Part shown: piece by piece, positions 18,568 through 57,331 of the stretch
Position numbering within the stretch: the stretch's first letter is position 1
How the letters are laid out: each line of letters begins with the position of its first letter
NCBI GenBank assembly: GCA_039802605.1
Contig: JBDRWW010000001.1
Coordinates: 256,001 to 320,000, forward strand
Length of the DNA: 64,000 nucleotides
Direction of reading: 5' to 3'
DNA from: a candidate division WOR-3 bacterium
GTDB taxonomy: Bacteria; Hydrothermota; Hydrothermia; LBFQ01
Notes under the pieces: model-generated
Told to the model about the DNA's origin: nothing
Databases searched by the model: none
What the model saw: the letters and a program-made list of their open reading frames with translations, nothing else
Program-made: the position numbers and the translations under genes

Positions 18568-18957
18568 ATGTTGGATTTTGGCTTACTCTTTTTAAGGTTT
18601 ATAGTATCCCTTTTGATGATTTTGGGGCACGGTGTTCCGAAAGTTTTGAATCCGCAATCCCACATAAACCTTGTTGAAATGGCCTTTCACACCGGCCCCC
18701 TATCCCCAATATTGGCATACTTATCCATAGCAGCGGAAACCCTATTTCAGGTGTTCATTTTATTCGGTATCTTTACCCGTATATCCTCTCTTATATCCTC
18801 CATAAACATGCTCGTAGCCCTGTTTTTCCTTATATTCATAAGGGGTACGGATTTCCCAAATTATGAAAAAGCCCTGTTATACTTTGTAATATATACTTTT
18901 CTTGTTTTCTCGGGTGCGGGGAGGTATTCCTTTGATGAGTTGGTAAGGAGGAGATGA
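18568..18957 (+). CDS. DoxX family membrane protein
   Basis: LRF...HGVPK, AE...GIFTR and GAGRYSFD motifs. Confidence 0.9.
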   Translation: MLDFGLLFLRFIVSLLMILGHGVPKVLNPQSHINLVEMAFHTGPLSPILAYLSIAAETLFQVFILFGIFTRISSLISSINMLVALFFLIFIRGTDFPNYEKALLYFVIYTFLVFSGAGRYSFDELVRRR

Positions 18958-21900: not shown

Positions 21901-22544
21901 ATTTATACACTTATCCGGATGATACTACGATTTATATCGGAGAAACCGACGGATATATGTCTTTAACGCCAAGGGGGGAGGCCGTAATTTCACTCTTAAA
22001 CAGGGGTTATATGAGCGGAAATTATACGAACCAATACTGGACTTTGGCCTTTTATAACGAACCTTTATCGGCATTCATAAACGGAAAGGAAACTTATATC
22101 TTTGCCCCAGGAGATGGGGGATTTTTCGCTTTTGACAGCTTGGGAAATATTATTCCCCTTTCTCCCTTCGGAAACAATGTATTAACGGGTAGGTCATACG
22201 AGTTGTTTGAAAATGGCGGAAAGGTATATCTCCTTTTGGCAAACTCCTGGAATATAACACTTTACGAGTTGGGTGAGGGGACAATTTCGGGTTATTGGTA
22301 TTATTCGGGTGGGGATTTAAGCCGTAGGAATTACTTAAATGTTGGGACAATAAGCGTATCGGAAATAACGGATTCAAAGGGATGTGTATTTATTGAAAGG
22401 GATAAGGTGGTTATGGAATGCGAAGGGGTTATATACGATGTTTTGGGTAGAAAGGTTTTTAAAGGTAAGGGGGTGTTTTCCAAAAGGGGTGCGTTTTTTG
22501 TTAAGGTTAAGGATAGGGTTTTAAAGGTTGTTTTAAAACTCTAA
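18954..22544 (+). CDS. C25 (gingipain-like) cysteine peptidase with T9SS-like C-terminal domain
   Basis: WVLLVGD, PTDLYYADLDG, VGRIP, HG...C dyad (VVHGNF, IIDCNNG), LYGDPS; tail IYDVLGRKV...GAFFVK. Confidence 0.85.
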   Translation: MMVPFYFTLQNPTFKDVGFYVYPVVEGGVYNYIAGEPFLPYLVLEINTGFPVRSVELTVLDVDTFLLNKPLYPSQGFLYADGREIPYDEFKPKYRGEYGGFGVISWRYSKGRVFVVISAFKYISEGNILLFSRGIKLEVEPLIGVKSKDEGNYNSQEHYDMLLIYPDNFSGGSVERFINFKKKQAIRVIAKKVQEANDFRGRDLAERIREMIKYYHSQFGVKWVLLVGDNDVIPVRYAKLYAYFQYGNEIPTDLYYADLDGDWDLNGNGVFGEVSDSLDLFADVYVGRIPINDEYVFDRYIDMLEEYLNFSPRYLKVFALGYDLFSGGSNEGMDAVNYMLQNLPPTMTLDTLSRMDLSSFIDSLNTHFFTTVVVHGNFQHFLLGGGYYTIGSATSQNINKPVFLNIIDCNNGALDKPSLVKFIFNNSNSGIIGIRATSRLNAPTFSSTVDKAFIDSVFSGKSLGEAFYKSLAYFIPLAISDNIYRYLTFGYVLYGDPSLYLWHSNPSTLSFSSTLPGSTYGTLYVNCDSGCRVLVDGITSYVSDGSTKSITTNFPNNLKIYAYKPNYYPAETSAVLTGYKLKFYLNKSVLSVGDTAELTLYIENNGNAPFNDTVEISFLKDTVFMAYIPPKGKINIRFDVFSPFEGDTFLVINSETLRVNFINNSPLVFLSPFGTWITNPHNVQTDTFFINGNPYILREKSYYVVSADTVFFYYKSYADTILPTPVDTPVVSFTPIQNGIRITSSDTFMVFHTYDRKTLRPLTLKPITGMFEINNISGFLGISRVRRFNLSNPVWIEVRGFPRKVWEITLKGAGQTSPIFINGYIYATANSKIYKLNLNGVILDSADLTGDVWDNISYGDGLLGIVSSNGKFGIYDTSLNALKVFDITVIPTQTQVAYFNGKFYINSGNNLLRCDTTKCDTLFSDTSLITSFSIRQNGEIFLTTFKNLYRIYNDSIYALKTFYNQTRQVVSTNSKVFVLLNAYLYTYPDDTTIYIGETDGYMSLTPRGEAVISLLNRGYMSGNYTNQYWTLAFYNEPLSAFINGKETYIFAPGDGGFFAFDSLGNIIPLSPFGNNVLTGRSYELFENGGKVYLLLANSWNITLYELGEGTISGYWYYSGGDLSRRNYLNVGTISVSEITDSKGCVFIERDKVVMECEGVIYDVLGRKVFKGKGVFSKRGAFFVKVKDRVLKVVLKL

Positions 22545-25490: not shown

Positions 25491-25997
25491 ATGAGTATTC
25501 TTAGGAATATGTTCGTGAATTTCAAACACATATTCAAAAAACCCGTTACGGTTATGTATCCGAATAAAACGAGAGAAATTCCCGAAAGGTGGAGGCTTGG
25601 GGGATTTGCCCTAACATATAACCCCGAGACGGGTGAGGAAAACTGCATAGGTTGTCAGTTATGCCAAAACATATGCCCTTCACAGATAATAACCGTTGTA
25701 AGAGGTATGGAAACCATAACATTACCAGATGGTAGCACCAAGAAAAAAACATTTGCAAAGGAGTTTTATTTAGATTTTCAAGCCTGCATGCAATGCGAAC
25801 TGTGCGTTCAGGTTTGTCCTACGGATGCAATAGTAATGGTTAAGGAAAGGAGAAAACCGGGATATACGAGGGAGGATCTGCTATACGACAAGGAAAGGCT
25901 TCTTGAAAACGGAAGAAGGATATTAAAAGGAGAACTTGAAGTTTCTTGGACAACGGGTAATAGAATAAGGGAATTACAAGATCCTAAGAGGGCATGA
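25491..25997 (+). CDS. nuoI: NADH-quinone oxidoreductase subunit I (two 4Fe-4S)
   Basis: VTVMYP; CIGCQLCQNICP and CMQCELCVQVCPTDAI; REDLLYDKERLL. Confidence 0.85.
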   Translation: MSILRNMFVNFKHIFKKPVTVMYPNKTREIPERWRLGGFALTYNPETGEENCIGCQLCQNICPSQIITVVRGMETITLPDGSTKKKTFAKEFYLDFQACMQCELCVQVCPTDAIVMVKERRKPGYTREDLLYDKERLLENGRRILKGELEVSWTTGNRIRELQDPKRA

Positions 25998-26341
25998 TCG
26001 GTTTTCTTTTATTTGTATCTTCGCCGGATGTAAATGTTGCAAAGGATACAGTGGTGGAAACAAACATGTCTTTTTGGTCATATTCTTCCTGTGCCGCAGC
26101 TTCCGGAGTAGAAGTTTTGGCATTCTACCTATCTTCTGGTTTGAGCGGGGGAATACCTTTATTGATAAGCACGGGTGCGGGTGGCACCGCGTGTGCGGTT
26201 TATAGTTATACCGCATACACCTTAACCCCCATAAAAGAGTTAAAACCAAAAGCTTTTAACAGTGCTTTTAGAGGGGGGACTGTGGGGATATTTTTGGGTT
26301 TAGGGACTGTAATAGTCTTAAAGCGTTTAGGGGTATTTTAG
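25994..26341 (+). CDS. Hypothetical membrane protein
   Basis: Gly/Ala-rich hydrophobic helices; ATGA-coupled to nuoI. Confidence 0.55.
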   Translation: MIGFLLFVSSPDVNVAKDTVVETNMSFWSYSSCAAASGVEVLAFYLSSGLSGGIPLLISTGAGGTACAVYSYTAYTLTPIKELKPKAFNSAFRGGTVGIFLGLGTVIVLKRLGVF

Positions 26342-26347
26342 AAAATT

Positions 26348-29776: not shown

Positions 29777-29802
29777 AAGTGGGAATTATAAAACCGTTTG
29801 AT

Positions 29803-30936
29803 TCACCATTCCCAACGCGTTTGCCTGTTTATATCGAGGGAAGGCACGGAGGAAGGTCTTGAAAACCTCGTCTCCTCTGGGTCGTTTGTCTTTATTAAGA
29901 CATACTCGCCGGTACCCACGGGATCGCCGAATATATAGTCGTATCCCCCTCCGGAATAGTATATCCATCTAATATAAGGTTTATCACTAATGCCCATATC
30001 AACGGATGTTATCTCATCGGGTTTTCCCCTCTTTATATATATCCTACCCATATCGGTATATCTACCCCTTAAAGCGGGCGTTGAAAAGGCGCTATCGGCG
30101 TATTTAACCCTTTTCCTGAACTCCAAGTAATAATCCCATCCCCTTTTTTCCCAGAAATTCTTCAAAAACGCCAATCTACCCTCTAAGGTTATAATCTTCT
30201 CAAATTCCTCCTTCTCTTTTGGTGATGCTATGTAATCTATAAATGAGGCTATATCATCCCCATAAGGCGAAACGAAAAACTCCCGCTCTAAATTGATCTT
30301 TTCTCCAAGAGAAGGGGAGATTACCTCTAAAACCAAACGGTATTTTCCATCTTTTAAATCCTCTATCGGAACCTGGGAATATACCGTTGATGAGGAGTTA
30401 AATGTTTTGGGAGGAAGTCTCAATACGGGCTTATCCCCATCAAATATAGCACCCACAACTATAAAGGGGCTATCGGATACCACCTCCAAGTAATAATTCA
30501 AATTCCTATAAAAAACGCAGGGAAAACATGGCCTTATATATAGGTTTCCCCTTTTGAATAGGGCGGTTGAATCGTTTTCCGATATGTTGTATGCGAGGAT
30601 TAAGGAGGAGGTTTTAATATTTCCAAATCCTTGGATAGAATCCTCCTTTTTAAAATCCATACCCTTACCCTTCAAATTGCCCTCAAACACCAAATTCTCC
30701 CAACCCGCTACGCTTTCATAAAACAAAATTGCATACCTACCCTTTGGCAATTTCTGTTTAACCTTATCCGTAAATTCCTTTTTATCCGAAGACTTAAAGG
30801 ATACGCTTAAATTTACATCACCGCCGAGGACTTTATCGGACATCAAACTATAAACCAAGATTATATTTCTGAGATTATCGTTTATAGGAAACCAAACCTT
30901 ATAAACTTCAACATTTACAGCCGCCACCAAAAGCAT
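29803..30936 (-). CDS. GWxTD-domain protein
   Basis: FLKNFWEKR...RVKYAD...GRYTDMGRIYIKRGKPD; start moved to ATG 30936 (TAAAAT 7 nt upstream). Confidence 0.8.
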   Translation of the reverse strand: MLLVAAVNVEVYKVWFPINDNLRNIILVYSLMSDKVLGGDVNLSVSFKSSDKKEFTDKVKQKLPKGRYAILFYESVAGWENLVFEGNLKGKGMDFKKEDSIQGFGNIKTSSLILAYNISENDSTALFKRGNLYIRPCFPCVFYRNLNYYLEVVSDSPFIVVGAIFDGDKPVLRLPPKTFNSSSTVYSQVPIEDLKDGKYRLVLEVISPSLGEKINLEREFFVSPYGDDIASFIDYIASPKEKEEFEKIITLEGRLAFLKNFWEKRGWDYYLEFRKRVKYADSAFSTPALRGRYTDMGRIYIKRGKPDEITSVDMGISDKPYIRWIYYSGGGYDYIFGDPVGTGEYVLIKTNDPEETRFSRPSSVPSLDINRQTRWEW

Positions 30937-31001
30937 AATGGATATTTTAAAGGTGAAATGCATATTCCAACTTTCCCCATCATCATTAAAATAGACGGTT
31001 T

Positions 31002-33191
31002 ATGTTGTTTTTGATTTTAAACCACATAACCCTTGAAGGTGAGATAAGGGATAGTTTAAATCAAAAAATCCCTTTTGCGGTTATAAGGGTTAAGGAGTTG
31101 AAAAAGGGAACCTATTCGGACGAAAGGGGTTATTTTTACTTAAAACTCCCGGATGGCAAATGGACAATAGAGGTAAAGGCCATTGGTAAAAAAACATATA
31201 CCTTTGTGGTAGAGGGAAGGGATACCGTAATAAGCAAAACCATAACTTTAAAGGATGAGCCTTTAACAACACCCGAAATAATAATTACGGCTAAGAGGGA
31301 AGAGTTTAAGCAGGGTACGGGTCAAGCCATAAGGTTCAAGGCAGAGGTTATAAGGCAAACCCCTACATTTATTACGGCGGATGTTTTAAGGACAATCCAA
31401 GATTTTCCAGGGGTTCTGGGTTTAGCGGATTTTTCTGGGAAATTTTCCGTTAGAAGTGGTGGTCCAAACGAAAACGCCGTTTTATTGGACAACGCAACCG
31501 TTTTCAATCCCTATCACTTGGGTGGATTCTTTTCTGTATTTGATTCGGATGCCCTTGAAAGCTTCACATTTTACAGGTCAAACTTCCCTCCAAAATTTGG
31601 AGGTGTTATGTCTTCCGTTTTGGATATGAAAACCTTGGAACCGGACAGCATTTACGGGAACCTTTCGGTAAGCCTCCTTGCGACAAAGGTATTTCAAACA
31701 TTTAAAGGCGAAAGGTTTGGAGGCTTGGTATCCCTTAGGAGGTCCTACTTCGACGCAACGCTTAAGCTCTTCGATTACGATTTTCCATATTACTTTTACG
31801 ACGCCTTGGGCAAGGTGTATTACAACTTAAACGATAAATGGACGGTTTCCACCACATTTATGCACGGAAGGGATCACTTCAACTTTACCATTAACAGGGC
31901 TTTTTTGAATACCTTCTGGGGGAACGATTTGGTAGCATTTAATTCTAGGGTTATTTTCGGCAATTGGATAAACTTCACCACTTTCAGCAGTACATACTTT
32001 ACAAACGGCATATCCGTTGGGTATGAAAATCAAAACTTTGTTTCCATAAAAACACCTATGGATTTAACAGAGTTTAAAACGAACTTTATAAGTATAGCCG
32101 AAGGTAGCGAGATAAACATGGGGTTGGATGTTCAAAGGGGTAGGGGGAAATTTGATCAGGAATTTTTTGGTTCCAATCTCCAATTCTCGGGTATTGGTTA
32201 TACATCGGCCTTTTTCGGTGAGTATATGTTGAAAAGGGGTTTGTACAACTTATCCCTTGGATTTCGCATAAACGCGTTTTTAAGGAAACTCATAAACGAT
32301 CCAAAAAGGGATGTAATGTATTTAAACCCGGAGCCAAGAATAACCTTTAAGCTATTTTTAACCCCGGATGTAGCATTAAAGGGTGGATTTGGTGTTTTCC
32401 ATCAGTATTATGTGGGTTTATCCGGAGGTGGTGGAACACTTGGTGAAGTCCTATCATCTTTTTACTACTGGGTTCCGGTTTATAGGGGGTTTGAGCCGGA
32501 AAGGTCATACCATTATTCCTTGGGCTTATCCGGAATAACCACTTGGGGGGATTGGGAAATAGAAGGGTTCTATAAAGACTACCCATACATACTAATTGAC
32601 AACCCAAATGTTGATCCAAACGACATTTTCGGAACACTGTTCAGAAAGGGATACGGCTGGGCTTACGGGTTTGACGGTTATATTAGAAAGGACATGGGAA
32701 GGCTTAGGGGTATGGTATCTTACTCCTTTTTGGTCGGCAGGGTAAAAATTTCGGATTCCCTTATGAATTCCCCGTATGATAGGAGGAACGCGGTGATAAT
32801 CGCCCTATCTTATGATATCCGTAGGGGTTTTGAGGGAGGTTTTAGGTTTGCCTATCAGAGTGGTCTTCCTTACACGGGTGTTATCGGTAGGTATGATATA
32901 TACACCATTTACAACCCGGGAACGGGACTACCCGCGAGGCTGAGAACCGAGGAGATTTATAGTTATCCCTATTCCTTACGGTATCCCCCATATCACAGGG
33001 CGGATGTTTATATATCAAAGGCCTTTGGCATTAAGCGGTTTAAAGGGAAATTATTCCTATCGGTTATAAACATTTACAATCGGGAAAATGTATTCACATA
33101 CTTTTACGACTACTCCAAGGATCCACCTCAGAAAATAACAATTCCCCAACTCCCTTTATTCCCATCCTTAGAGATTTTCCTAAACTGGTAA
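31002..33191 (+). CDS. TonB-dependent receptor
   Basis: N-terminal carboxypeptidase-regulatory-like domain; plug DVLRTIQDFPGV..VRSG..NAVLLD..NPYHLGGFFS; barrel with EPR and YHRAD; C-terminal W. Confidence 0.9.
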   Translation: MLFLILNHITLEGEIRDSLNQKIPFAVIRVKELKKGTYSDERGYFYLKLPDGKWTIEVKAIGKKTYTFVVEGRDTVISKTITLKDEPLTTPEIIITAKREEFKQGTGQAIRFKAEVIRQTPTFITADVLRTIQDFPGVLGLADFSGKFSVRSGGPNENAVLLDNATVFNPYHLGGFFSVFDSDALESFTFYRSNFPPKFGGVMSSVLDMKTLEPDSIYGNLSVSLLATKVFQTFKGERFGGLVSLRRSYFDATLKLFDYDFPYYFYDALGKVYYNLNDKWTVSTTFMHGRDHFNFTINRAFLNTFWGNDLVAFNSRVIFGNWINFTTFSSTYFTNGISVGYENQNFVSIKTPMDLTEFKTNFISIAEGSEINMGLDVQRGRGKFDQEFFGSNLQFSGIGYTSAFFGEYMLKRGLYNLSLGFRINAFLRKLINDPKRDVMYLNPEPRITFKLFLTPDVALKGGFGVFHQYYVGLSGGGGTLGEVLSSFYYWVPVYRGFEPERSYHYSLGLSGITTWGDWEIEGFYKDYPYILIDNPNVDPNDIFGTLFRKGYGWAYGFDGYIRKDMGRLRGMVSYSFLVGRVKISDSLMNSPYDRRNAVIIALSYDIRRGFEGGFRFAYQSGLPYTGVIGRYDIYTIYNPGTGLPARLRTEEIYSYPYSLRYPPYHRADVYISKAFGIKRFKGKLFLSVINIYNRENVFTYFYDYSKDPPQKITIPQLPLFPSLEIFLNW

Positions 33192-33202
33192 GGGATCCTT
33201 TT

Positions 33203-34093
33203 CTATTGTGCTCCTCGCATTAAAACCCCAAGGGCTTTTTTAAGCCTATTTTTTGCGTTTTGAATTGAAAAGTATTCAAGGTTTGCATTTGGGGGTTTAA
33301 TTCCGCCCTTTATGTATTCCGCCATCTCCTCTAAGGAATCAAAGCCGTAATCGTATAAACCCAACATTTGGAGTATCTCCCACACACCACCGGATGTTTT
33401 GAATGTTATAACGGGTGTATTGTAATAAAGGGCTTCAAGGGCCGTTAGGGAAAAGGATTCGTAATATGAGGATACTATTAAGGCGTATGCCCTTTCGTAA
33501 AATTGTGATAAATCTTCAACATACCCGAAGAACTTTACATTTTTTTTATCTTTACCTTCCAAGCCTATAACCCAACCCTCATATCCGGTAATATCAACGA
33601 GCTTTAAAAACCTATCAAAACCCTTTATCCAAGCATTTCTACCCACCCATAATAACGCCCTTTCCCTATTTAAACCCTTGGGATTTGGGAGTTTGTTAAA
33701 ATCCAAACCTATATGAACCACATAAGGATTTATCCCATAAAACTTATTACACATCTCCGCCATTGAAAAACTCGGGGCAAGCCAACCGTCAAACTTTTTT
33801 ACCCATTTTTTAAACTTTAAGAGTTTATAAAGATTTAAAGGGTTTTTCTCAAAACCTCCAAAAACCATTCTCCTTGATAGCGCCCTCAAGCCGTGAAAGA
33901 AGAAAAACTTGGGAACACTAATACTTTCAGGGTTTAAGTTTTTAAAGTATCCGTTTATAACAACCGCTTCATAACCGCTTATCTCCGGAAACCCGCCTTT
34001 CTCCACTTCCCAAATTTCAAAATTTTCACCTTCAATTTCGCTTAAAAATTTACCGACACCCCCTCCCTTTTTTCCTAAGATGAATAATACCAA
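33203..34093 (-). CDS. GT4 family glycosyltransferase
   Basis: VGR...KG and SYYESFSLTALEA (Ex7E) motifs. Confidence 0.8.
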   Translation of the reverse strand: MVLFILGKKGGGVGKFLSEIEGENFEIWEVEKGGFPEISGYEAVVINGYFKNLNPESISVPKFFFFHGLRALSRRMVFGGFEKNPLNLYKLLKFKKWVKKFDGWLAPSFSMAEMCNKFYGINPYVVHIGLDFNKLPNPKGLNRERALLWVGRNAWIKGFDRFLKLVDITGYEGWVIGLEGKDKKNVKFFGYVEDLSQFYERAYALIVSSYYESFSLTALEALYYNTPVITFKTSGGVWEILQMLGLYDYGFDSLEEMAEYIKGGIKPPNANLEYFSIQNAKNRLKKALGVLMRGAQ

Positions 34094-36244
34094 TTATCTG
34101 ATCACAACCCTATAAACCCTATTTCCGGTCTTGATAAAGAATACACCTCTGTTTAGTTCAACCCTTTCACCCTTGCCAAACTTGCCTATGAGCCTTCCCG
34201 TTGATGTGTATATATTAGCATTTTCGTATAGGATTATATCCTTACCCTTTAAGACGAAGGGAGTTAAGGAAGTCCCCCTTGAAACCATATCTTCGCCAAC
34301 ACCCAAGGGATCGTTATTTCCACAGGGGCCGCCGTCTATGGCTACGAGACTATAAGGCTGGCCACCCGGCTTGGGATTGTTTAATGTTATACCCTTGACA
34401 TTTACCGTCCAATACCCCCTTTGTGCGTTTTCAACATACACGACTTCAACATTATTTACATAATCGGTGGGACCAGACGGATTTGGTATTGATTGACCGC
34501 CTGAAAACTTATTCCCTTTATACACCGTTCCATCCGGGGCTATAACTTCAAGGTCAAGGTTGTTTTGTAATGTGCTTCCGGGTGCGTCCGTCCAAGCCAA
34601 AACCACTTTGAAATATGGAGTTGTAAATTGGGAATGGCAACCCACGGGTATGTTATATGTCTCAGTTGCACCGGCCTGGACCCCAATACTATCATCAACC
34701 ACAAAGAGCCTATGCTTTTCGGCAACATCGTCAAAAAACAATACCCTCTTTAAGTTTATCCTTCCCCAACCTATTGCGTTATTGGGTGGGAGGTTTTCAT
34801 TTAACATTTTTTGTGCCGATGCTATAAGCATGGCCTTTAATAGGGAACCTTGTGGGTTGAAAGCGTTTGAGGAAACGGGACTACCCGTTGGATACCAGCC
34901 CTCGCGGAAATATTGCCTTACGATCGCGGCCGCACCCGCCGCCGCGGGTGTTGCCATAGATGTACCCATAAACCCAGAACTAACGGCGGCGCAGGAATAT
35001 GTCCTATCGGTTCTGTTCTTTGCGGATGTTATATAACTTGGGGTAAATCTGTTATCACCTCCGGGTGTCATAACATCGGGCTTTATTCTACCGTCATATG
35101 TGGGGCCTTGGCTGGAATACCAAGCCCTGTTCTCATCCGGGGGGATTGCCGCATTTGAAAATGCCCCGGCCGCGCCTACGGTTAAAATATTTTTTGCGGT
35201 TGCCGGTGCTCCCACCGTACCATCCTCATAAGAGGAGGCGCTGCTGCTATTTCCAGCGGCGAACAACACCAAAGCATCCGGGTGATCCCACATAAACTGG
35301 TCGGCATCACGGGCGTTTGATGTGTAAGCGTTTAAAGAACTTCCCCAAGAGTTCGTTATAACCCTCGCCCCATCGTTGTAAAACCAAGTAAAAATCGTGT
35401 TTATTGAATACGAATAGCATATGCCTCCACAACTGCCACAACTTGGGCCCCCGGCATCTCCGAATGTAATTTTAGCCTTATAGGCCATACCCCTAATATC
35501 CAAAAATACGCCCGTGGTATCCGGATCGCCGGCTGCCGTCCCAGAAACATGGGTTCCGTGCTCATCCGGACAGGTGGCAAAATCATCGGCATAAGGTGAT
35601 AATTGCCTATAATTAACCACCTTTCTGTGGGATGGGCCGGGCATTATGACGGATGTATCCCTGAAAAAGCAAGAGTAGTAATCAAGACCCGTGTCCATCA
35701 CACCTATTATTTCCCCCTCTCCGTGCAATCCGTGGGCCCAAATCAAGGAATCTCCGAATACATGTGTTTGGATAGACCACCTCGTATTCCTATTCCACAA
35801 ATAATTTTTATAATTGGGTTCTATCCTCGCAACATAAGGCAAAGATGCCATCTTTTGGGAAAAGTATAAAACCTCCTCTTCCGGAACCAAAACCTTAAAC
35901 CTTGGAACATCTTCAAATGGTACCGCTTCGTATCCCAATTTCTTTATTTCAAGTTCCAAAATCCTTTTATCCGCATTCGGAAAACCCACTACCAAGAGTT
36001 CCACGAGGGAACCTTCCTTTGCATCCCCAAACTTACCTTCATATATCTCTTTTGCTATTTTTAGCTCCTCTGGAATTCCCGTTATTTGAAAGTTGGGGAG
36101 TTTAACACCGTTAGGGATATAGGCAATATAGCCGTATTGCGGAATGTATTCGTATATTTTCACACCCCTGTTTGCAAGACCCAATGCATCCGCATTTTCA
36201 CCAACGGGCTTAACAATCGCCCAATACGATAAAACCATTAACAT
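34094..36244 (-). CDS. S8 subtilase (KP-43-like) with T9SS-like C-terminal domain
   Basis: DTG, HGTHVSG and GTSMATP triad; LLKAMLI, LAWTD, NNLDL, NNVE; start ATG 36244 or TTG 36247. Confidence 0.9.
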   Translation of the reverse strand: MLMVLSYWAIVKPVGENADALGLANRGVKIYEYIPQYGYIAYIPNGVKLPNFQITGIPEELKIAKEIYEGKFGDAKEGSLVELLVVGFPNADKRILELEIKKLGYEAVPFEDVPRFKVLVPEEEVLYFSQKMASLPYVARIEPNYKNYLWNRNTRWSIQTHVFGDSLIWAHGLHGEGEIIGVMDTGLDYYSCFFRDTSVIMPGPSHRKVVNYRQLSPYADDFATCPDEHGTHVSGTAAGDPDTTGVFLDIRGMAYKAKITFGDAGGPSCGSCGGICYSYSINTIFTWFYNDGARVITNSWGSSLNAYTSNARDADQFMWDHPDALVLFAAGNSSSASSYEDGTVGAPATAKNILTVGAAGAFSNAAIPPDENRAWYSSQGPTYDGRIKPDVMTPGGDNRFTPSYITSAKNRTDRTYSCAAVSSGFMGTSMATPAAAGAAAIVRQYFREGWYPTGSPVSSNAFNPQGSLLKAMLIASAQKMLNENLPPNNAIGWGRINLKRVLFFDDVAEKHRLFVVDDSIGVQAGATETYNIPVGCHSQFTTPYFKVVLAWTDAPGSTLQNNLDLEVIAPDGTVYKGNKFSGGQSIPNPSGPTDYVNNVEVVYVENAQRGYWTVNVKGITLNNPKPGGQPYSLVAIDGGPCGNNDPLGVGEDMVSRGTSLTPFVLKGKDIILYENANIYTSTGRLIGKFGKGERVELNRGVFFIKTGNRVYRVVIR

Positions 36245-36248
36245 CAAC

Positions 36249-36266
36249 GGGTATTATATCCCCGTT
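36249..36266 (-). promoter_or_regulatory. Putative -10 promoter/operator AACGGGGATATAATACCC
   Basis: TATAAT 8 nt before ATG; nested in inverted repeat CAACGGG/CCCGTTG (36245-36267); matches 6222-6239. Confidence 0.5.
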
Positions 36267-36304
36267 GGGTTTATTTGTGGGAAATACTGGGGGTGGAGGG
36301 GTTT

Positions 36305-37294
36305 CTACCCATGCTGACCGATTAGAGTATCAACTATCCTTTTTTCGGCATAAGGTTCAAAGTATTGGGAGAGCTTGGATATATATCTTTCGGAATTTTT
36401 GAGCAATTTTTCAAGGATTTCAACCACTTTGGCAATATTTGTATCCCTTTCCAAAAGCATCTCCGCGGCACCAAAATTATATACATCCATTGCATTAAAT
36501 ACCTGATGACCCCCTGCATAAGAATATGGGATAAACAAAGCGGGTTTTTTAAAATAGCATATTTCACCTATGGAACTCACACCCGCACGGGATATTATGA
36601 CATCCGCCGCCGAGTAAAATGGGGATATGTCCTTTAAAAACTTTACAAATTTGTAATTCTTACCTTCGGCGTCTTCACCCCTTTTCCCCACTATCCCCAA
36701 AATGAAAAACTTATTTAAATCGGCCAAGTTTTTTGCAATTTCGTTTAGGATTTTTGAACCCTGACTACCACCTATTATTCCGACTACCGGCAACTTTGTA
36801 TCAATTCCCAAAACTTTATGGGCATGTTCCCTTTCATAAACCTCCAACTTCCTAACGGGTATTCCAACAAAGATACCCTTTGAAAAGTATTTAACCGCGC
36901 TCCTGAAAGCGCAAAAAACACCCCTTGAAAACACCGATAATACTTTATTGGATTTTCCAGCAACGGCATCCCCTTCGAAGAGGTAATAGGGTTTATTGTT
37001 GATTATGGCGTTTATCATAGGAGGTAATTGCGGATAACCCCCAAAACCCAACAAAACATCTCCCTCCACGACGGGATCAAAGGTTTGAAAAATCCCTTTT
37101 AAAATTGCGTTTAAATTCCTTAATTTTATTTCACCTGCGGAGAATTCCAAAAAACTCTCCTTTATGGGGAAATCAACCTTTAAACCCCCAAGAAGTAAAA
37201 CCTTAGATATTTTTCTCCTGTCCAATTCGGCCGATACGGATAGTGCGGGGGATATATGCCCTCCGGTGCCGCCGGAAACCAAAACGACCTTCAT
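36305..37294 (-). CDS. murG: MurG N-acetylglucosaminyl transferase
   Basis: GGTGGH, GFGGY, GIPVR, GGSQGS, ISRAG and HQVFNA motifs. Confidence 0.92.
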   Translation of the reverse strand: MKVVLVSGGTGGHISPALSVSAELDRRKISKVLLLGGLKVDFPIKESFLEFSAGEIKLRNLNAILKGIFQTFDPVVEGDVLLGFGGYPQLPPMINAIINNKPYYLFEGDAVAGKSNKVLSVFSRGVFCAFRSAVKYFSKGIFVGIPVRKLEVYEREHAHKVLGIDTKLPVVGIIGGSQGSKILNEIAKNLADLNKFFILGIVGKRGEDAEGKNYKFVKFLKDISPFYSAADVIISRAGVSSIGEICYFKKPALFIPYSYAGGHQVFNAMDVYNFGAAEMLLERDTNIAKVVEILEKLLKNSERYISKLSQYFEPYAEKRIVDTLIGQHG

Positions 37295-37929
37295 TTCTCC
37301 CCAAAAATTAAGCCCTCAACATGTTTCCAAGCCTCGTTTATCACCCCTTCAACACTCTGATTTCCGTTTATAACCTTTATCCTCTTTTTAGCCCTCCTTG
37401 CCAATGCCAAATATCCATACCTAACCCTTTCAAAGAATTCCAGGCCAAGCTTCTCGTAATAATCAAAATCTTTTGTTCTCTTTAACCTTTCCAAGGCGAT
37501 CTTTGGGTCTATGTCTATAAGGAGGGTTAGGTCGGGCTTCAACTTCATACTCGCTATTTTGTTTAAACGGGTTATCAGGTAATACTCCAACCCTTTACCA
37601 AAAACCTGGTATGCAAAGGTTGAATCCGAATACCTGTCGCTTATAACTATTTTCCCTTCCCTCAGCGCAGGTATTATTTTCCTCTTAGTGTGGTCATACC
37701 TTGAAGAAAGTAAAGCGAAAACTTCCGCCAAAGGCTCCCTCGCTATGGGTTTTGATAAGACCTTTCTTATTTCCTCCGCGAAATCCGTCCCACCCGGTTC
37801 CCTTGTTATAACTATTCTTTCGGGTTTTACCCCCCTTTGAAGTAATCTCTCCCTTAATCCCTCAATTAAAGAGCTTTTGCCGCTACCGTCAATGCCCTCA
37901 ACGGTTATAAACTTTCCCCATCTACCCAA
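37291..37929 (-). CDS. tmk: Thymidylate kinase
   Basis: EGIDGSGKS, REPGGT, DRYSDSTFAYQ and PDLT motifs. Confidence 0.95.
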   Translation of the reverse strand: MGRWGKFITVEGIDGSGKSSLIEGLRERLLQRGVKPERIVITREPGGTDFAEEIRKVLSKPIAREPLAEVFALLSSRYDHTKRKIIPALREGKIVISDRYSDSTFAYQVFGKGLEYYLITRLNKIASMKLKPDLTLLIDIDPKIALERLKRTKDFDYYEKLGLEFFERVRYGYLALARRAKKRIKVINGNQSVEGVINEAWKHVEGLIFGEK

Positions 37930-37932
37930 AGT

Positions 37933-39834
37933 TTAAAGTGCCAAAATCCCGAGAATAAACAGGGCACCAACAACAAGCCACAACGCGTATGTTCTGACGG
38001 AACCCGTTTGCAATTTCCTAAATAGGGAACCAAATGCGTAAGATATCCAAGCCAAGGCATTAATGGTACCGTCAATCAAAATCCTATCAACGAGTAGGAA
38101 CAATATCCACTTTGAAATGAAGTTCAAACCCTTAACAAAAACAAAGTAATAAATCTCATCCACCCAATACCTGTTATACAGCACAACATAAACGGGTTTG
38201 AAAACCTTAGCCATAACGACGGGAATACTCGGGGAAAGTACATACATAAAGTAGGCCAACAAAATTCCCAGAACGCCGGCGGTTATACCGAGAAGCATGG
38301 GCAAGGATGTATGGGATATGTGGAAGTGTTCGGGTAATACGAATGCATCCTTAAAGAGTTTTGCCCACAAGCTGTGCTCACCTCCCAAACCGACAAAACC
38401 GGCAACTATTGAACCCATTGCCAAAATTCCCATAGGTATAAGCATTATAGGGGGACTTTCATGGGCGTGTTCGTAAAGGTGATGATCCCTAGGTTTCCCA
38501 AAGAAAACCATAAAAAACATCCGAAACATGTAGAAAGCGGTTAAAAATGCGGTGATGACCAAAAGCCAAAAGACAAAGGGGAATTCCTGGGTTGCCAAAA
38601 GAATTTCGTCCTTACTGAAAAAGCCGGCAAAAGGAGGGATACCCGCAAGGGCCAAGCCCCCTATCGCCATAAACAAACCCGTCCATGGGAGTTTTTTCCA
38701 AAGCCCTCCCATCCTCTGAATATCCAATACATCGTGTAATGCATGCATTACGGAACCGGCGGTTAAGAACAACAGGGCTTTAAAGAAGGCGTGTGTGTAT
38801 AGGTGGAAAACCCCCGCGGAATACCCAAACATACCCGCAGCCGAAAACATGTAGCCCAACTGTGATATGGTTGAAAAGGCGAGGATCCTCTTTAAGTCGT
38901 TATTTACAAGGGCCATAGTTGCGGCAAAGAAGGCGGTTAAGGCCCCTATTATAGCCACCATTTCGGGGGATGATAGACCAAAAAGTATGGGGACATCCTT
39001 AACGGATGAGTATAAAAACGATGTCCTCGCCACGAGATATACGCCGGCCGTTACCATAGTTGCGGCGTGTATTAATGCCGAAACCGGTGTTGGACCCTCC
39101 ATGGCATCCGGCAACCAAACATAAAGGGGGATCTGGGCCGATTTACCGGTTGCCGCCACAAAAAACAGCAAGCCCGCTAATGCCAAAGAAGATGCCAATG
39201 TTTCTTTATTTTGCAAAACAAAGTTATTAACCTCCGTATATTTTAGCGTCCCAAAGAGGGCAAATATTAAGAACATACCCAATAAAAACCCCGCATCCCC
39301 AATTCTATTAACCACAAAGGCCTTCATACCGGCCTGACGGGGTGCATCCCTAAAATACCAGAACCCTATTAAAAGGTAAGAGGCCAAACCGACACCTTCC
39401 CAACCCACAAATGTAACCGGGAATGAGTTTCCCAAAACCAAAACCAGCATAAAGAACACGAACATATTTAAATAGGAGAAATACCTCCAATAACCCTCAT
39501 CGTGCTCCATATAGCCTATGGAATAAAGGTGTATCCAAAGGGATACGAATGTTACAACGAATAGCATTATGCCCGCAAGGGGATCAAGTAGATAACCCAC
39601 GGTAATGTTTAGGTCTCCGGCGAACATCCATGTGTATAGGTCTTTTTCAACGGTAAGACCCCCGAATAGGGTTTGGTACGCGAGATAACCCCCGGTAAGG
39701 GTGGAGATCAAAAGCATAAGGGTGGCTATCCATCCCGGAAGTTTGCCGAGTTTTCTACCGAATATTCCGTTAATCAAAAACCCAAAAAAGGGCGCACTAA
39801 CGGTGGTAATAACGAGAATATCCACGGTATTCAT
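37933..39834 (-). CDS. nuoL: NADH-quinone oxidoreductase subunit L
   Basis: GWEGVGLASYLLIGFW, NRIGD, GKSAQIPL.WLPDAMEGPTPVSALIHAATMV and HAFFKALLF; start moved to ATG 39834 (TAGAAT 8 nt upstream). Confidence 0.95.
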   Translation of the reverse strand: MNTVDILVITTVSAPFFGFLINGIFGRKLGKLPGWIATLMLLISTLTGGYLAYQTLFGGLTVEKDLYTWMFAGDLNITVGYLLDPLAGIMLFVVTFVSLWIHLYSIGYMEHDEGYWRYFSYLNMFVFFMLVLVLGNSFPVTFVGWEGVGLASYLLIGFWYFRDAPRQAGMKAFVVNRIGDAGFLLGMFLIFALFGTLKYTEVNNFVLQNKETLASSLALAGLLFFVAATGKSAQIPLYVWLPDAMEGPTPVSALIHAATMVTAGVYLVARTSFLYSSVKDVPILFGLSSPEMVAIIGALTAFFAATMALVNNDLKRILAFSTISQLGYMFSAAGMFGYSAGVFHLYTHAFFKALLFLTAGSVMHALHDVLDIQRMGGLWKKLPWTGLFMAIGGLALAGIPPFAGFFSKDEILLATQEFPFVFWLLVITAFLTAFYMFRMFFMVFFGKPRDHHLYEHAHESPPIMLIPMGILAMGSIVAGFVGLGGEHSLWAKLFKDAFVLPEHFHISHTSLPMLLGITAGVLGILLAYFMYVLSPSIPVVMAKVFKPVYVVLYNRYWVDEIYYFVFVKGLNFISKWILFLLVDRILIDGTINALAWISYAFGSLFRKLQTGSVRTYALWLVVGALFILGILAL

Positions 39835-39908
39835 GAACGGATATTCTAAGCCCGAAAAACGATTATTGGGTTCGGTATGCATTTAATTCAACCTTAAAAT
39901 AAATTCTT

Positions 39909-41561
39909 ATGCTTATACTGACGGCTTATATAACTTTTGCAAGTAGGTATGGAAACGGCAATGAGGAGCCCTACTCAATGGTTAGAATATCCGAAGGCTA
40001 TGCGATTTTCGGGCAAACCAATTCGTTTTCCGGGGGTGGACTGGGATACGGCGACTTATTTTTGATAAAAGTTGATACTATGGGAAATCTTCTCTGGAAC
40101 AGGGTTTACGGTAGATACATAAGTCCTTCCACACCACGAGAGGATTATGCCACTTGGATGATAGGAACATCGGATGGTGGTTTTTTGATGTTGGGTTATA
40201 CGGGTGTCGACCCCTCGCCTTCCGATAGTATGCACCTTTTTATGATAAAAACAAATTCTCTTGGGACAGTATCCTGGGCAAAAAGAATAGGTGTTAATCC
40301 AATTGCCGTTGGAGAAATTGATAAGGCTTGGAGTGCTGTGGAGGATACGGGTGGATATATTCTCGCCGGACAAACAAACACATCACCGGGTGCAGACTTT
40401 GATGCAATAGTTTTAAAAGTGGCTTCGGATGGGAGTGTTATAAGGTGGCAAAAGCGTTTGGGTAGGTTTAAGTTTGGAACCGATACGGTTCTGGCACAGC
40501 TCATGTTTGACATAGCAAAAGGACCGGACGGAAACTATATTTTGGTTGGAAGGGTTGAGGACAGTTTAACAACCCTCCCTTCGGGAGACCCGGAAGATTG
40601 GGATATTTATGCGGTAAAGATTAGACCCAATGGGGATACTGTATGGACTAAAAGGTATAGGGGGCAGCCAACGCGCACATTTGTATCGGGGAATAGAGAA
40701 AGCGCCATAGGTTTGACCATGCTACCATCGGGAAATTTTGTAGTCGTTGGATACGCCAACACTTGGGAAAGTCCATCAAACAATCCGGCTTATAGGGATA
40801 TGCTGGTTATGAAGATAAGGGGAACGGATGGGGCGGTGCTGTGGGCAAAAAGGGTCGTAAGCAATGGAACATACGACCTTTTCAGAAACGCGTATTACTC
40901 AAACGGATATGTTTTCCTAAGCGGTGAGCTAAACGGCGATGCGGTTTTAATAAAGATGGATACATTGGGTAATCTCATATGGGCTAAGAGGTTTTCAACA
41001 CCTTCAACGGATATAGGGAGATATGCCTTTCCAACAAACATAAATGGACAACAACATGTGGTGTTTTTACTATCGTCAGGTGGGTATGCTATTTTGATTC
41101 AATTGGATAGCAGTGGAAATTATTTAAGACCACCTCTTTGCGGATATTTAACGACAATAAGCCCTACCATTAGCAATGTTAGCCTTTATGCAATACCCAC
41201 AAGGGATAGCGTTTACAACCTCTCGTTTTCTATAAACGACGCATCCGTGGCAACCACGAATGGAATAAACTCCAACAACCTTTGCCCCCTTAACGGCGAT
41301 TACGAACTCGTTGTAGGGGAGAGGGAAAGTTGCAAGGATGCAATTGTTGTAAAATCTTCCAAGGGTGGTTTAAAATTGGATGTTTATAAGGCCGGAGATT
41401 ATGAAATAAGGGTTTATGATGCGAGCGGGAGGTCGGTTAGGGAATTTAACGGTTATATGGGTTTGGGAGTTTATACCTTAAATGTTCATAGAGGGCTGTT
41501 CTTCGTAGAGATAATAAAGGACGATAAGAGTTTGGGGATATTTAAAGCGGTAATAATGTGA
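39909..41561 (+). CDS. Secreted beta-propeller-like repeat protein with T9SS-like C-terminal domain
   Basis: Repeats of D.F/Y.IK.D..G...W.K/R..G and DGGF/Y..G.T; tail VYDASGRSV...GLFFV. Confidence 0.75.
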   Translation: MLILTAYITFASRYGNGNEEPYSMVRISEGYAIFGQTNSFSGGGLGYGDLFLIKVDTMGNLLWNRVYGRYISPSTPREDYATWMIGTSDGGFLMLGYTGVDPSPSDSMHLFMIKTNSLGTVSWAKRIGVNPIAVGEIDKAWSAVEDTGGYILAGQTNTSPGADFDAIVLKVASDGSVIRWQKRLGRFKFGTDTVLAQLMFDIAKGPDGNYILVGRVEDSLTTLPSGDPEDWDIYAVKIRPNGDTVWTKRYRGQPTRTFVSGNRESAIGLTMLPSGNFVVVGYANTWESPSNNPAYRDMLVMKIRGTDGAVLWAKRVVSNGTYDLFRNAYYSNGYVFLSGELNGDAVLIKMDTLGNLIWAKRFSTPSTDIGRYAFPTNINGQQHVVFLLSSGGYAILIQLDSSGNYLRPPLCGYLTTISPTISNVSLYAIPTRDSVYNLSFSINDASVATTNGINSNNLCPLNGDYELVVGERESCKDAIVVKSSKGGLKLDVYKAGDYEIRVYDASGRSVREFNGYMGLGVYTLNVHRGLFFVEIIKDDKSLGIFKAVIM

Positions 41562-43982
41562 TCATCTAACCACCACCTTATAAACCCTACCGCCTTCTTT
41601 TACAAAATAAATACCCCTTTTCAGTTGCACAAATCCCTTTCCTTTGAAAACCCTTCTGCCATCCACAGAATAGATTTCACCGCTTAGATAAACCCCGTAT
41701 TTTGATGAATAAAATCCCATCGCAACCCCCTTTTCATTCTCAACATAGGATAACACCGGGCATATTGGGTTTGTGGTGTAAAACAACCTTAAATAAAGGG
41801 TTGCGGAATCCCCGGGTGAAAGGGTATAAGGTCCTGAACCGATCATAGCCGACCAATCGCTTACGGTATCTGGTGGAAAGGATATATCACCCCTTAAAAG
41901 GAGAAACTTTACGCTATCGTCCATTATCTCAAACCAGCTTGCGTTTTTTATAAAAGAAATGTTTGAAAGCGGGTTCAAAGCCTGCAAACCTATATAACCG
42001 TTGAAGCTGCCATCAACCGCCCCCATTAACAAACACCTATAAGTTGGATACATGTATCCCGTATCCTTACTCGGCCTTCCAACATCAAAATCCGCAAAAA
42101 ATCCTATATAACCGGATATAGTTGAAGGTGTAGTATTTTTAACGGTAAAGGCCAAATGTATAAATGTATCCCCGCCGTACCCGTATCCGGAAAGGGTGTA
42201 TTCCAAACCGTTGCTATCACGCTGTTCAATGTAGTAGCCCTGCGGGACAAAGGGTATAAACTTAAATGTATCCGTAGGGTAAAAGTCTCTATCGTTTCCG
42301 TCTTTACCTATCCAAGCATCGCTAACATTTGAATGGGAAATTCCAAAGGCAAAACTCCCCAAATATAAATTTCCAATGCCCCCATACCAGAGGTTAAAAA
42401 ACTTTCCCGTTCTCGTAAAAGAGACCTTTAAAGCGGTTGTATCAATGCTAACATATTCCCTTGGAGGATTTCCAAAAGGTACGAGTATGCCGTTTATAGT
42501 GCTATCGCTATAAGAAATCTTTAAAACAAAGGATATGTATTCGCCGTCGTTTATACCACTTGCGAATATTTCAAAGGATACGGAAAATGTATCCGAGGCC
42601 GGGACGGTGGCATTAAAGGGTGGTGTGTTTATGGAAACCCTTGTATCGGATGTTTGTAGGGAAAAGTTTGCCAAGGAAGATGAAGCGGTATAATTCTTTA
42701 TTAAAACCACCAAAGTGTCAAGTCCATCAAACCTTCCATCCTTTATTTGCCAAGATAAAACCCTTGGTAAAATTGTTGAAGGTAAGGGTGTATTCTTTAC
42801 GGCTTTCCAAGCGTTAACCCTTCCCCAACCGTATGAATTGTTGGGATAGGGGGAACCCCATGGGAAGGTATCGGTTGAATAGGTTAAAATGTTATAAATA
42901 TCGTAAAATGTTAAAGATGGATTCTTTTGAAGCATTAAGGCTATTACCCCCGCGGTTATAGGTGATGAAAGCGATGTTCCACTTGCGGTTCTAAAACCCC
43001 CCCCTATGTTTGTGGTCAATACAGCTACGCCCGGGGCAACCACATCGGGTTTTAAAAGGTTCCATGTCGGATAAGGCCAGTATGTGGGGTCATTCCAAGG
43101 GTTTTTGTTGGGGGCTGGGCCCCTTGATGAAAACGATGCCAATGTATCGCCGGAATTTGTAGCCCCAACACCTATAACCAACGGATAGTTTCCAGGGGAG
43201 AAATTAACACCCGGGGTATTCCCCAGAGCAAATACGGGAATAATTCCGGCCATCCTTAAAAGGTATATATCGTTCCAATATTCAAGCGAGCCACTCGTAT
43301 CACCGGTTTTCCAAGAGCCGTTATACACCCTTATGTCATAGCCGGAGTCTATTTTCCATTCGAGGATCTTTGAAAAACCCAGGTGAGTTGCAACTTCGTT
43401 TGATGTTATATAATATCCAAACATCCTAACAACCGCTATTTTTGCCCCGGGTGCCACGCCCGTGCTATCCGCCACCAAAACCCCCGATACCAAGGTTCCA
43501 TGCGGGAGTATGGGGGAATCCGTGGGCCTTTCACTACCCTCAACGGCGTCGTACCATATGCCCGACCACTTCCCTATTAAATACGGGTGACTCGTATCTA
43601 TTCCGGTATCCATTATAACCACCAAAACCCCATTTCCATTATAGCCGTTTGCCCAACAGGAGTCCGCCATAATTTTATCTAAGGCCCAAGAACCCGTTGA
43701 ATTCCTTCCGTAATCGTATATTGGTAAAAGTTCAACCGTTCCGGCTTTGTGGTACCCAACCGCGCCTAATACATCCCTTATTTTGTTCAGGTTTTCTTTG
43801 GATGTATATACGGCCACGGCGTTTGCCGATGGTAAGGGTATAACGCTATCCGCGAGGTTATAACTTTTTAAAAGGTTTGCCCTTTGACTTGTTTGCAGTT
43901 TTAACATTTGAAAAAGGGGTTTTACATCCCTAAACTTATAATCCACAACATTACCAAGGGAAAAAATATACCAACCCATCAT
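41562..43982 (-). CDS. S8 serine peptidase with T9SS-like C-terminal domain
   Basis: DTG, HGTLVSG, FSSRGP, KPDVVAPG, GTSLSSP, YGWGRVNA; tail IYSVDGRRV...GIYFV; start moved to ATG 43982. Confidence 0.9.
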   Translation of the reverse strand: MMGWYIFSLGNVVDYKFRDVKPLFQMLKLQTSQRANLLKSYNLADSVIPLPSANAVAVYTSKENLNKIRDVLGAVGYHKAGTVELLPIYDYGRNSTGSWALDKIMADSCWANGYNGNGVLVVIMDTGIDTSHPYLIGKWSGIWYDAVEGSERPTDSPILPHGTLVSGVLVADSTGVAPGAKIAVVRMFGYYITSNEVATHLGFSKILEWKIDSGYDIRVYNGSWKTGDTSGSLEYWNDIYLLRMAGIIPVFALGNTPGVNFSPGNYPLVIGVGATNSGDTLASFSSRGPAPNKNPWNDPTYWPYPTWNLLKPDVVAPGVAVLTTNIGGGFRTASGTSLSSPITAGVIALMLQKNPSLTFYDIYNILTYSTDTFPWGSPYPNNSYGWGRVNAWKAVKNTPLPSTILPRVLSWQIKDGRFDGLDTLVVLIKNYTASSSLANFSLQTSDTRVSINTPPFNATVPASDTFSVSFEIFASGINDGEYISFVLKISYSDSTINGILVPFGNPPREYVSIDTTALKVSFTRTGKFFNLWYGGIGNLYLGSFAFGISHSNVSDAWIGKDGNDRDFYPTDTFKFIPFVPQGYYIEQRDSNGLEYTLSGYGYGGDTFIHLAFTVKNTTPSTISGYIGFFADFDVGRPSKDTGYMYPTYRCLLMGAVDGSFNGYIGLQALNPLSNISFIKNASWFEIMDDSVKFLLLRGDISFPPDTVSDWSAMIGSGPYTLSPGDSATLYLRLFYTTNPICPVLSYVENEKGVAMGFYSSKYGVYLSGEIYSVDGRRVFKGKGFVQLKRGIYFVKEGGRVYKVVVR

Positions 43983-44025
43983 ATCGCACATTTTATAGTT
44001 GAAAAACCCACCTTAAAATACTTGT

Positions 44026-47630: not shown

Positions 47631-47634
47631 TTTA

Positions 47635-47646: not shown

Positions 47647-47657
47647 ATAAAACGAAT

Positions 47658-57061: not shown

Positions 57062-57331
57062 TTGTATAAGGATAGACTTGACGAGTTGGCTTACAAAATT
57101 TACAAAATGGGTTTGGGTACTGTTGCCATTTTTTTCTTAGAGAGCATGAAACCCTTAAACAATGTTGTGTTCAACGCGGGCTTGTTTTCAAAGCCCTTTG
57201 CGGAAGTGTTCCTAAAAGAGGAAATATACAAAGAGATTTTGGGAATCATTAAGGACAAGGACGCATTGGAATATCTGATTAACAGATTGGAGGAATTGGA
57301 AGATGGTATGGTTGGTAATGGGGCAAATTGA
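57062..57331 (+). CDS. Small hypothetical protein
   Basis: 89 aa; TAAAAT box 6 nt before TTG; leads an operon. Confidence 0.7.
   Translation: MYKDRLDELAYKIYKMGLGTVAIFFLESMKPLNNVVFNAGLFSKPFAEVFLKEEIYKEILGIIKDKDALEYLINRLEELEDGMVGNGAN

Follow-up and report, generated by a model that had tools for sequence, protein, structure and literature searches.

Predicted ultrashort, uncharged Sec signals on envelope and secreted proteins of a WOR-3 bacterium from a class without a detectable signal recognition particle

Introduction

The stretch of DNA analysed here (the window; 64,000 nucleotides, positions 256,001 to 320,000 of the forward strand of contig JBDRWW010000001.1, assembly GCA_039802605.1) comes from Candidatus Caldipriscus, a member of the candidate phylum Caldipriscota, known as WOR-3. 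Several of its genes encode proteins of envelope or secreted families that begin with a stub of roughly seven to nine mostly hydrophobic, uncharged residues, and the original prediction took such stubs to be a minimal export signal of the lineage. This claim held when extended: a minimal uncharged N-terminal segment is found on most non-lipoprotein exported proteins genome-wide and also in sister families, and none of the three outcomes named beforehand as refuting it (upstream starts that give normal signals, signals of normal length on most outer-membrane proteins, cytoplasmic localisation) was encountered. We consider it quite likely that the stubs are genuine, strongly shortened signals for the Sec translocon and signal peptidase I, predicted for the majority of envelope and secreted proteins other than lipoproteins in Ca. 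Caldipriscus and the families closest to it.

Canonical Sec signals cleaved by signal peptidase I are tripartite, with n-, h- and c-regions, and about 18-30 residues long, the h-region usually measuring 7-15 residues. The stubs resemble them in being N-terminal and hydrophobic, in occurring on periplasmic, outer-membrane and secreted families, and in often having a small residue before the presumed cut. They differ in lacking a basic n-region, in a hydrophobic run of only 5-8 residues within a total of ~7-9, in the frequent Trp at the third position, and in belonging to a cell without a signal recognition particle (SRP). The sole cultured WOR-3 strain has inner and outer membranes, according to a portion of PMC12285271. 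Caldipriscus itself is an abundant member of hot-spring streamer communities of the Conch and Octopus Spring type (PMC11696919).

Results

Short N-termini in the window

All eleven N-termini quoted in the original prediction are in the sequence at the positions below, including the conventional MRR...C signal of a lipoprotein (a slash marks the presumed cut).

31002..33191, + strand: TonB-dependent receptor, SusC/RagA-like; start MLFLILNH (31002-31025), a CarboxypepD_reg-like domain next
30987..30992, + strand: -10-like box TAAAAT, 9 nucleotides (nt) before ATG 31002, its first three bases forming an in-frame TAA
29803..30936, - strand: GWxTD-domain protein; start MLLVAAV; TIGR04514 at 63.8 bits; TAAAAT box 30949-30944, spacing 7 nt
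34094..36247, - strand: subtilase S8a; start (M)MLMVLSY at 36244 or TTG 36247; Peptidase_S8 at residues 175-494
36258-36253 and 36256-36254, - strand: upstream signals of subtilase S8a, a TATAAT box and a TAA stop, respectively
39909..41561, + strand: beta-propeller protein; start MLILTAY; TAAAAT box 39895-39900; TAA stop 39900-39902
41562..43982, - strand: subtilase S8b; start MMGWYIFSL; Peptidase_S8 at residues 116-387; TAAAAT box 43995-43990
18954..22544, + strand: Peptidase C25 family protein; start MMVPFYFTLQ; Peptidase_C25 at residues 161-499; led by a Shine-Dalgarno site, with a stop 5 codons upstream
4311..5075, - strand: protein called a 'barrel' in the original prediction; start MVLILLGAF; stop 1 codon upstream; GGAGG 8 nt upstream; no Pfam or NCBIfam match
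57303..59288, + strand: VWA-domain protein; start MVWLVMGQ; VWA domain from residue 26-27
59285..59935, + strand: possible small outer-membrane beta-barrel; start MTTFLTLQ; overlaps the end of the VWA gene; the OMP_b-brl_2 match is weak (E 0.0034) and below the cut-off
25994..26341, + strand: 115-residue protein without an assigned family; start MIGFLLFVS; stop 2 codons upstream
10742..12124, - strand: transglutaminase-like lipoprotein; conventional signal MRRIFLLTFLLIA/C; Transglut_core; TAGAAT box 12139-12134

In the TonB receptor, the first domain recognised by Pfam or NCBIfam starts at residue 9-12: CarbopepD_reg_2 covers residues 12-94, Plug is also matched, and position 1 of the SusC/RagA profile TIGR04056 falls on residue 9. 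The beta-propeller protein gave a weak match to NF047494 and a marginal one to the C-terminal sorting domain of the type IX secretion system (TIGR04183, 22.1 bits against a cut-off of 23).

Extent and composition of the ultrashort set

We called open reading frames (ORFs) crudely in the 1.65-Mb, 23-contig Ca. Caldipriscus assembly, keeping the longest non-overlapping frames from the first ATG, GTG or TTG, which gave 1576 ORFs. An N-terminus was scored as ultrashort if Met was followed by at least five hydrophobic residues in six and the first seven residues contained no K, R, D or E. This pattern occurred more often than chance would give, at 125 of 1576 ORF starts compared to 294 of 8502 internal Met residues, and 93 ORFs were left once those with later transmembrane segments or long hydrophobic runs had been removed. 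In 86 of the 95 pattern ORFs without a later transmembrane segment, the hydrophobic run including Met was 5-9 residues long, which is the usual h-region minimum or below. By the definition of the set, K and R are missing from the first seven residues, leaving neither a charged n-region nor a twin-arginine (Tat) motif. The lipobox Cys is also missing, with one possible exception (MILAVYWFSG/C).

The composition of the 93 N-termini is distinctive. Trp is the third residue in 22 of them (18-fold over background), and Gln stands at position 8 in 16 (9.7-fold) and at position 9 in 8 (4.8-fold). Gln occurs somewhere at positions 7-12 in 30/93, preceded in 22 of the 30 by S, A, G, T or C, and the -3 residue in these cases is mostly L or I. 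Many of the N-termini without Gln read ...[A/S/T]/D.

A Pfam scan covered 57 of the 93 ORFs, picked only by physical clustering, and returned matches for 41: 28 envelope or secreted proteins, 9 of uncertain location and 4 cytoplasmic false positives (L13 with a mis-set start, DUF503, BFN and YidD). The 28 envelope and secreted proteins include SurA, LolA_like, a DsbA-like thioredoxin, redoxin, Amidase_3, M23, M14, M16, M28, two S8, OEP, FadL, a TonB receptor and two with Por_Secre_tail, among others. Counted by family across the genome, the short form is carried by six of seven S8 proteases (the seventh is ambiguous), by four of eight Plug-domain receptors (two are conventional and two ambiguous) and by both TolC-like proteins. 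BamA starts with MLLGILVL/Q, and the carriers of the short form thus include essential proteins of the periplasm and outer membrane.

Translation starts

Short N-termini would be an artefact if the real starts lay upstream, reached through a non-canonical start, read-through, a frameshift or an assembly error, so that normal signals were hidden. We regard this as highly improbable, and the evidence described below has already largely refuted it. In-frame TAA stops precede three of the starts in the span 30900..43995, as had been stated in the original prediction: at 30987-30989 (four codons before ATG 31002), at 39900-39902 (two before 39909) and at 36256-36254 (three before 36244). The adjacent -10 box that it described was likewise found, as all five starts in this span have TAAAAT or TATAAT ending 7-9 nt upstream. 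For the TonB receptor, the propeller protein and subtilase S8a, the in-frame stop is supplied by the -10-like box itself. The codon directly before ATG 36244 of S8a is TTG and could add one residue. The GWxTD gene has an in-frame ATG upstream at 30963 (MHFTFK...); a 95%-identical strain diverges upstream, with conservation running from MLLVAA, and the start at 30936 is favoured. For S8b, ATG 43991 sits inside the TAAAAT box that ends 7 nt before 43982, and 43982 is the favoured start.

The same arrangement is seen across the genome. The distance from the upstream in-frame stop to the start has a median of 5 codons and is at most 5 codons in 51 of the 93 ultrashort ORFs. In 416 of 1576 ORFs (26.6%), compared to ~19 per four background positions, the start is preceded by a TAnAAT box whose end lies 6-9 nt away; the share is 8.0%, 1.7% and 2.0% in three other WOR-3 genomes, each sampled over 400 kb. 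GGAGG is most frequent 6-7 nt before the start (110 ORFs). Among the ultrashort ORFs, 39 have the TAnAAT box, 14 a Shine-Dalgarno-like site and 40 neither. We take a TAnAAT box 6-9 nt before the start to be the layout of leaderless or nearly leaderless mRNAs, and its abundance suggests that such mRNAs are very frequent in this genus. Because of the upstream stops and -10 boxes, there is no room for an n-region with K or R.

Hidden leaders in other frames were not found either: out-of-frame upstream ORFs beginning with M and K/R precede 6 of 93 ultrashort ORFs and 158 of 1471 other ORFs, no excess, and upstream of ten window genes there is no K/R-hydrophobic peptide in any frame. Recoding of a single stop codon was considered and rejected, since the stops upstream of ultrashort starts and of their orthologs comprise TAA, TAG and TGA. 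What speaks for hidden upstream starts is that 8 of the 93 ORFs start with GTG and 8 with TTG, and that a longer TTG form is possible for the TonB receptors of genomes G001 and G004, for two Plug proteins and for one S8 protease. Against it stand stops of all three kinds 0-5 codons upstream in many independent assemblies, -10 boxes 6-9 nt upstream, the lack of excess out-of-frame leaders, and conservation that begins at the Met. The annotated Met is thus the only place where translation can begin, and the mRNA often has next to no leader there.

Short and ordinary signals in relatives

TonB-receptor loci were compared in 19 relatives, which we assign to families designated f1, f2 and so on. 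In 15 of them an uncharged start of 6-15 residues directly precedes the conserved domain, and a stop or the lack of any start codon upstream leaves no room for more. Family f2 has the starts MLFLLIN/Q, MLLILLN/Q, MTLILLS/Q and MLNLIFS/Q, and family f5 has MLVLLLVSGSLSG. Of the remaining loci, one (f3) has a single K, two from one genus also permit a longer TTG form, and one is truncated where its contig ends. BamA and SurA have short uncharged starts in f1 and f5 too. Ordinary signals with K/R are found on BamA or SurA in f4, f8 and f10, which belong to the same class as the window, and in many other WOR-3 families, while short uncharged signals recur in the unrelated-looking families f13, f14, f19, f22, f27, f29 and f31. 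Shortening thus appears, from these sequences, to be most pronounced in f1, f2 and f5, with a scattered occurrence in other families.

Orthologs with ordinary signals also show where the short N-termini would be cut. MVLFLLS/QWSFGQNK here aligns with ...ALSICYA/QFSYFGKNK in a distant genome, so that the predicted cut corresponds to residue 8, and Q8 of BamA here aligns with ...SLYS/Q and ...LYAA/Q of orthologs with normal signals. This correspondence between the predicted cut of the orthologs and residue 8 indicates that the trait is a shortened Sec signal.

The alternative that the stubs stay uncleaved, export relying on mature-domain targeting read by SecA and the short N-terminus being a weak helper or a remnant, seems unlikely to us. 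Targeting signals do exist in mature domains, and signal-defective proteins can be exported in prl strains. At their length the stubs could not span the membrane, the residue before Gln is one unsuited to signal peptidase I in 8 of 30 cases, 63 of the 93 have no Gln at positions 7-12, and in a cell without SRP it is SecA that must target anyway. These points have to be set against a composition that is kept across families while the sequence drifts, as it does in signal peptides, against the enrichment of a small residue plus Q or D at a fixed distance, and against the alignment of Q8 with the residue at which orthologs with ordinary signals are predicted to begin once mature.

Conventional signals in the same cell

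About 56 ORFs have a lipobox, and 55 of the 56 carry K/R, mostly as MKR or MRR, forming a class separate from the ultrashort set. Lipoprotein signals are themselves short, with a median of 11 residues from the last K/R to the lipobox Cys; the stubs resemble them in this respect and differ in lacking both K/R and the Cys. About two dozen non-lipoproteins, judged by eye among 62 candidates, keep conventional signals of the MKR...FAQ type. One cell therefore handles three kinds of signal, and the coexistence of conventional and lipoprotein signals with the stubs indicates that its machinery still handles normal ones. On contig C7 of this genome (designated G000; ~56145-65500), three adjoining large exported proteins, including a TonB receptor of 1063 residues, all have conventional signals of the MK(R) type, in contrast to the bulk of the genome.

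Absence of SRP

The original prediction had proposed an inspection of ffh, and the outcome was that no part of SRP could be detected, be it Ffh, FtsY or the SRP RNA. The profile PF00448, for the GTPase domain common to Ffh and FtsY, gave only noise in the Ca. Caldipriscus genome (20.8 bits) and in 30 relatives of its class (at most 28.5 bits), that is, in 31 of 31 class genomes. Neither the signal-binding M domain (PF02978) nor SRP RNA (RF00169) was found in any of the 31. Several of the relatives are rated 100% complete, and one is assembled in 3 contigs. In model genomes serving as positive controls, PF00448 and PF02978 were each detected in 14 of 14 and RF00169 in 12 of 14. A tblastn search with four FtsY proteins from within the phylum found nothing in the Ca. 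Caldipriscus genome. In the absence of SRP, these very hydrophobic N-termini cannot be read by it.

In a set of 81 genomes from across WOR-3, strong PF00448 matches were present in 50, with one Ffh-sized and one FtsY-sized frame among the matches listed, and SRP RNA was found in 49 of these 50. The other 31 of the 81 have no SRP RNA; 15 are of the same class as the window and 16 fall in f11, f17, f21, f23, f24, f25, f26 and f32. In five of these 31 there is a single PF00448 match of intermediate strength (138-158 bits), which may be FlhF. A simple rule linking SRP loss to short signals was considered and rejected: f11, f17, f21, f24 and f26 lack SRP and have a conventional BamA, and the seven unrelated-looking families with short uncharged signals (f13 to f31, listed above) are SRP-positive.

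Sec machinery

The Ca. Caldipriscus genome encodes SecY (335.5 bits), SecA (SecA_DEAD, 380.3 bits), signal peptidase (Peptidase_S26, 154.3 bits) and YidC (187.6 bits). It also has a deformylase gene, which bears on the possible role of the N-terminal formyl-Met that the original prediction offered as an alternative. SecY (443 residues) aligns end to end with the Aquifex (414 bits) and E. coli proteins without large gaps. We compared positions that we take to be pore-ring and prl sites: residues at E. coli positions 67, 82, 86, 191, 278, 282, 286 and 408 are unchanged, and Ile-187 is replaced by Ala, as in Aquifex. The single LepB (223 residues) has one N-terminal membrane segment, with SSSMENTL directly after it and YVKRV and GDNRDYSWDSR later. 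SecA (~975 residues) has no Cys-rich tail, and YidC no long basic C-terminal tail. The modified recognition by SecA, SecY or signal peptidase that the original prediction expected was thus not seen: the SecY sites are kept, the layout of LepB is ordinary, and the tails of SecA and YidC are unremarkable.

Within the class, 17 columns of the SecY alignment separate f1, f2 and f5 from f4 and f8. One of them is Q288 (numbered in G000:C2; after LLFP, at the outer end of transmembrane segment 7), which is invariant in 21 sequences from f1, f2 and f5 and Ser in 4 from f4 and f8; its apparent tracking of short signals is confounded by descent and gives a lead only. SecY matches in f4 and f6-f9 (L216-L218, L220, L225, L227, L229 and L230) contain one in-frame stop (TGA, TAA or TAG), which probably reflects an alignment crossing an upstream gene boundary by a few residues.

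An ordinary Sec apparatus is also what would be expected if the N-termini of the M-hydrophobic-W type were read by a separate route independent of SecA and SecYEG, which might have arisen in WOR-3 lineages that lack SRP or have short signals. The unusual uniformity of the motif (Trp third in 22/93) and the sharp separation from the lipoprotein class (K/R in 55/56) fit such a route. We nevertheless think it very unlikely: no candidate machinery was found, although none was looked for, sister lineages export these protein families with ordinary Sec signals, and intermediate lengths of 10-15 uncharged residues in related families suggest that Sec signals were shortened gradually.

Elsewhere in the window, at 47631-49859 on the + strand, four tandem paralogous ORFs of ~184-194 residues share the stretch ...VWTYEDYLKLEDDKRYEVINGRLVEMPAP... 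and presumably have a Uma2-type endonuclease fold.

Discussion

The stubs of Ca. Caldipriscus and its nearest families probably act as strongly shortened Sec signals, and we can outline how they might work. SecA, rather than SRP, would deliver proteins with short stubs, and the hydrophobic hexa- to octamer would open the lateral gate of SecY. Without a positive charge to keep it on the cytoplasmic side, the whole stub may then move to the outer leaflet, and LepB, whose groove would take roughly the last seven residues of the signal, could cut after the small residue, often exposing Gln. Lipoproteins do keep K/R, and the reason may be that Lgt and LspA can process only a signal whose N-terminus is anchored inside.

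Several points weigh against shortened Sec signals. A segment of 7-8 residues cannot span the bilayer as a helix, and we know of no natural signal this short. In 8 of the 30 N-termini with Gln at positions 7-12, this Gln follows L, F or P, a poor fit to signal peptidase I, and the comparison of SecY and LepB yielded no change that would explain altered recognition. In 6 of 56 lipoprotein signals (MRW..., MKRW...), Trp comes immediately after the last K/R, which hints at a position at the cytoplasmic interface and argues against a flipped stub. The pattern-based set contains ~10% cytoplasmic false positives. A crude whole-genome heuristic discriminated weakly, with 3-6% matches in three comparison genomes versus 9.6% here; applied to 400 kb from each of the genomes G020, G058 and G037, it was dropped as noisy in favour of the ortholog-by-ortholog comparison, because cytoplasmic proteins opening with a beta-strand and spurious ORFs also score. 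In two metatranscriptomes available as raw reads, of which ~3% of each run was scanned, no read fell on a 19.9-kb stretch. Two other runs in contig form (sediment; hot springs) contained in-gene fragments of window positions 25500-45400 at no less than 99% identity; such fragments indicate presence only and show neither 5' ends nor, strictly, transcription. Finally, we infer the export and cleavage of these proteins, as well as the way in which the stub opens the translocon and reaches the peptidase, and the mechanism outlined above is conjecture.

A more radical possibility, which we hold tentatively and think less probable than not, is that most of the envelope proteome is exported with a distinct kind of signal, an uncharged stub of 7-9 residues (M-hydrophobic-W/L-hydrophobic x4-small/Q or D). 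Too short for the classical membrane-spanning hairpin, it would engage SecA and SecYEG, or an unknown factor, in a different manner, with the N-terminus crossing together with the chain, in cells that have also discarded SRP.

Shortened Sec signals find partial parallels in known systems. With the prl suppressors of E. coli secY or secE, Sec moves proteins that have crippled signals. The seven-residue stub resembles such a signal, but it is the natural state here, and the SecY positions that we take to be prl and pore-ring sites are unchanged except for I187A. In Bacteroidetes, substrates of signal peptidase I follow a Q-rule, with Gln at +1 cyclised by glutaminyl cyclase (parts of PMC5837995 and PMC10653852), a rule that does not hold across the whole FCB (Fibrobacteres-Chlorobi-Bacteroidetes) group (part of PMC5837995). 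The likeness here lies in the enrichment of Gln at the expected mature start (24/93 at position 8 or 9) and in conventional signals that also end in ...FAQ or ...YAQ; unlike in the Q-rule, Gln is confined to roughly a quarter to a third of the ultrashort set. Type I glutaminyl cyclase (PF05096) was not found in the Ca. Caldipriscus genome, and the type II or M28-type cyclase was not specifically sought. Engineered E. coli suppressors survive complete loss of SRP when translation is slowed (sections of PMC7844537 and bioRxiv 10.1101/2021.01.06.425660); here, in contrast, Ffh, FtsY and SRP RNA are missing across a whole natural class.

A literature search found no paper on ultrashort signals or on the absence of SRP in WOR-3, supplements with possible ffh and ftsY tables lying outside its scope. 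In the portions of text covered, 'signal peptide' is not mentioned in PMC12285271, PMC12542636, PMC11696919 or PMC4791363, nor 'signal recognition' in PMC4791363.

Prediction software that learned signal peptides from canonical examples will probably overlook the greater part of the secretome in these WOR-3 lineages, so that what has been published on their metabolism and 'secreted enzymes' may fall short of the true number. Genome completeness will be underestimated where the marker set includes ffh and ftsY. Thermophilic export tags of such short length could also find applications in biotechnology.

Both the tripartite signal peptide and SRP are regarded as almost universal. Here, a free-living diderm appears to move BamA, SurA, TolC and most secreted enzymes with an uncharged stub of 7-9 residues and without SRP. 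If the stub does engage the translocon in a manner of its own, the n-region, a bilayer-spanning h-region and SRP would all be dispensable for a free-living diderm. These WOR-3 lineages would mark a natural minimum for the requirements of Sec export and signal peptidase, and they would offer a ready-made test system for models of signal recognition.

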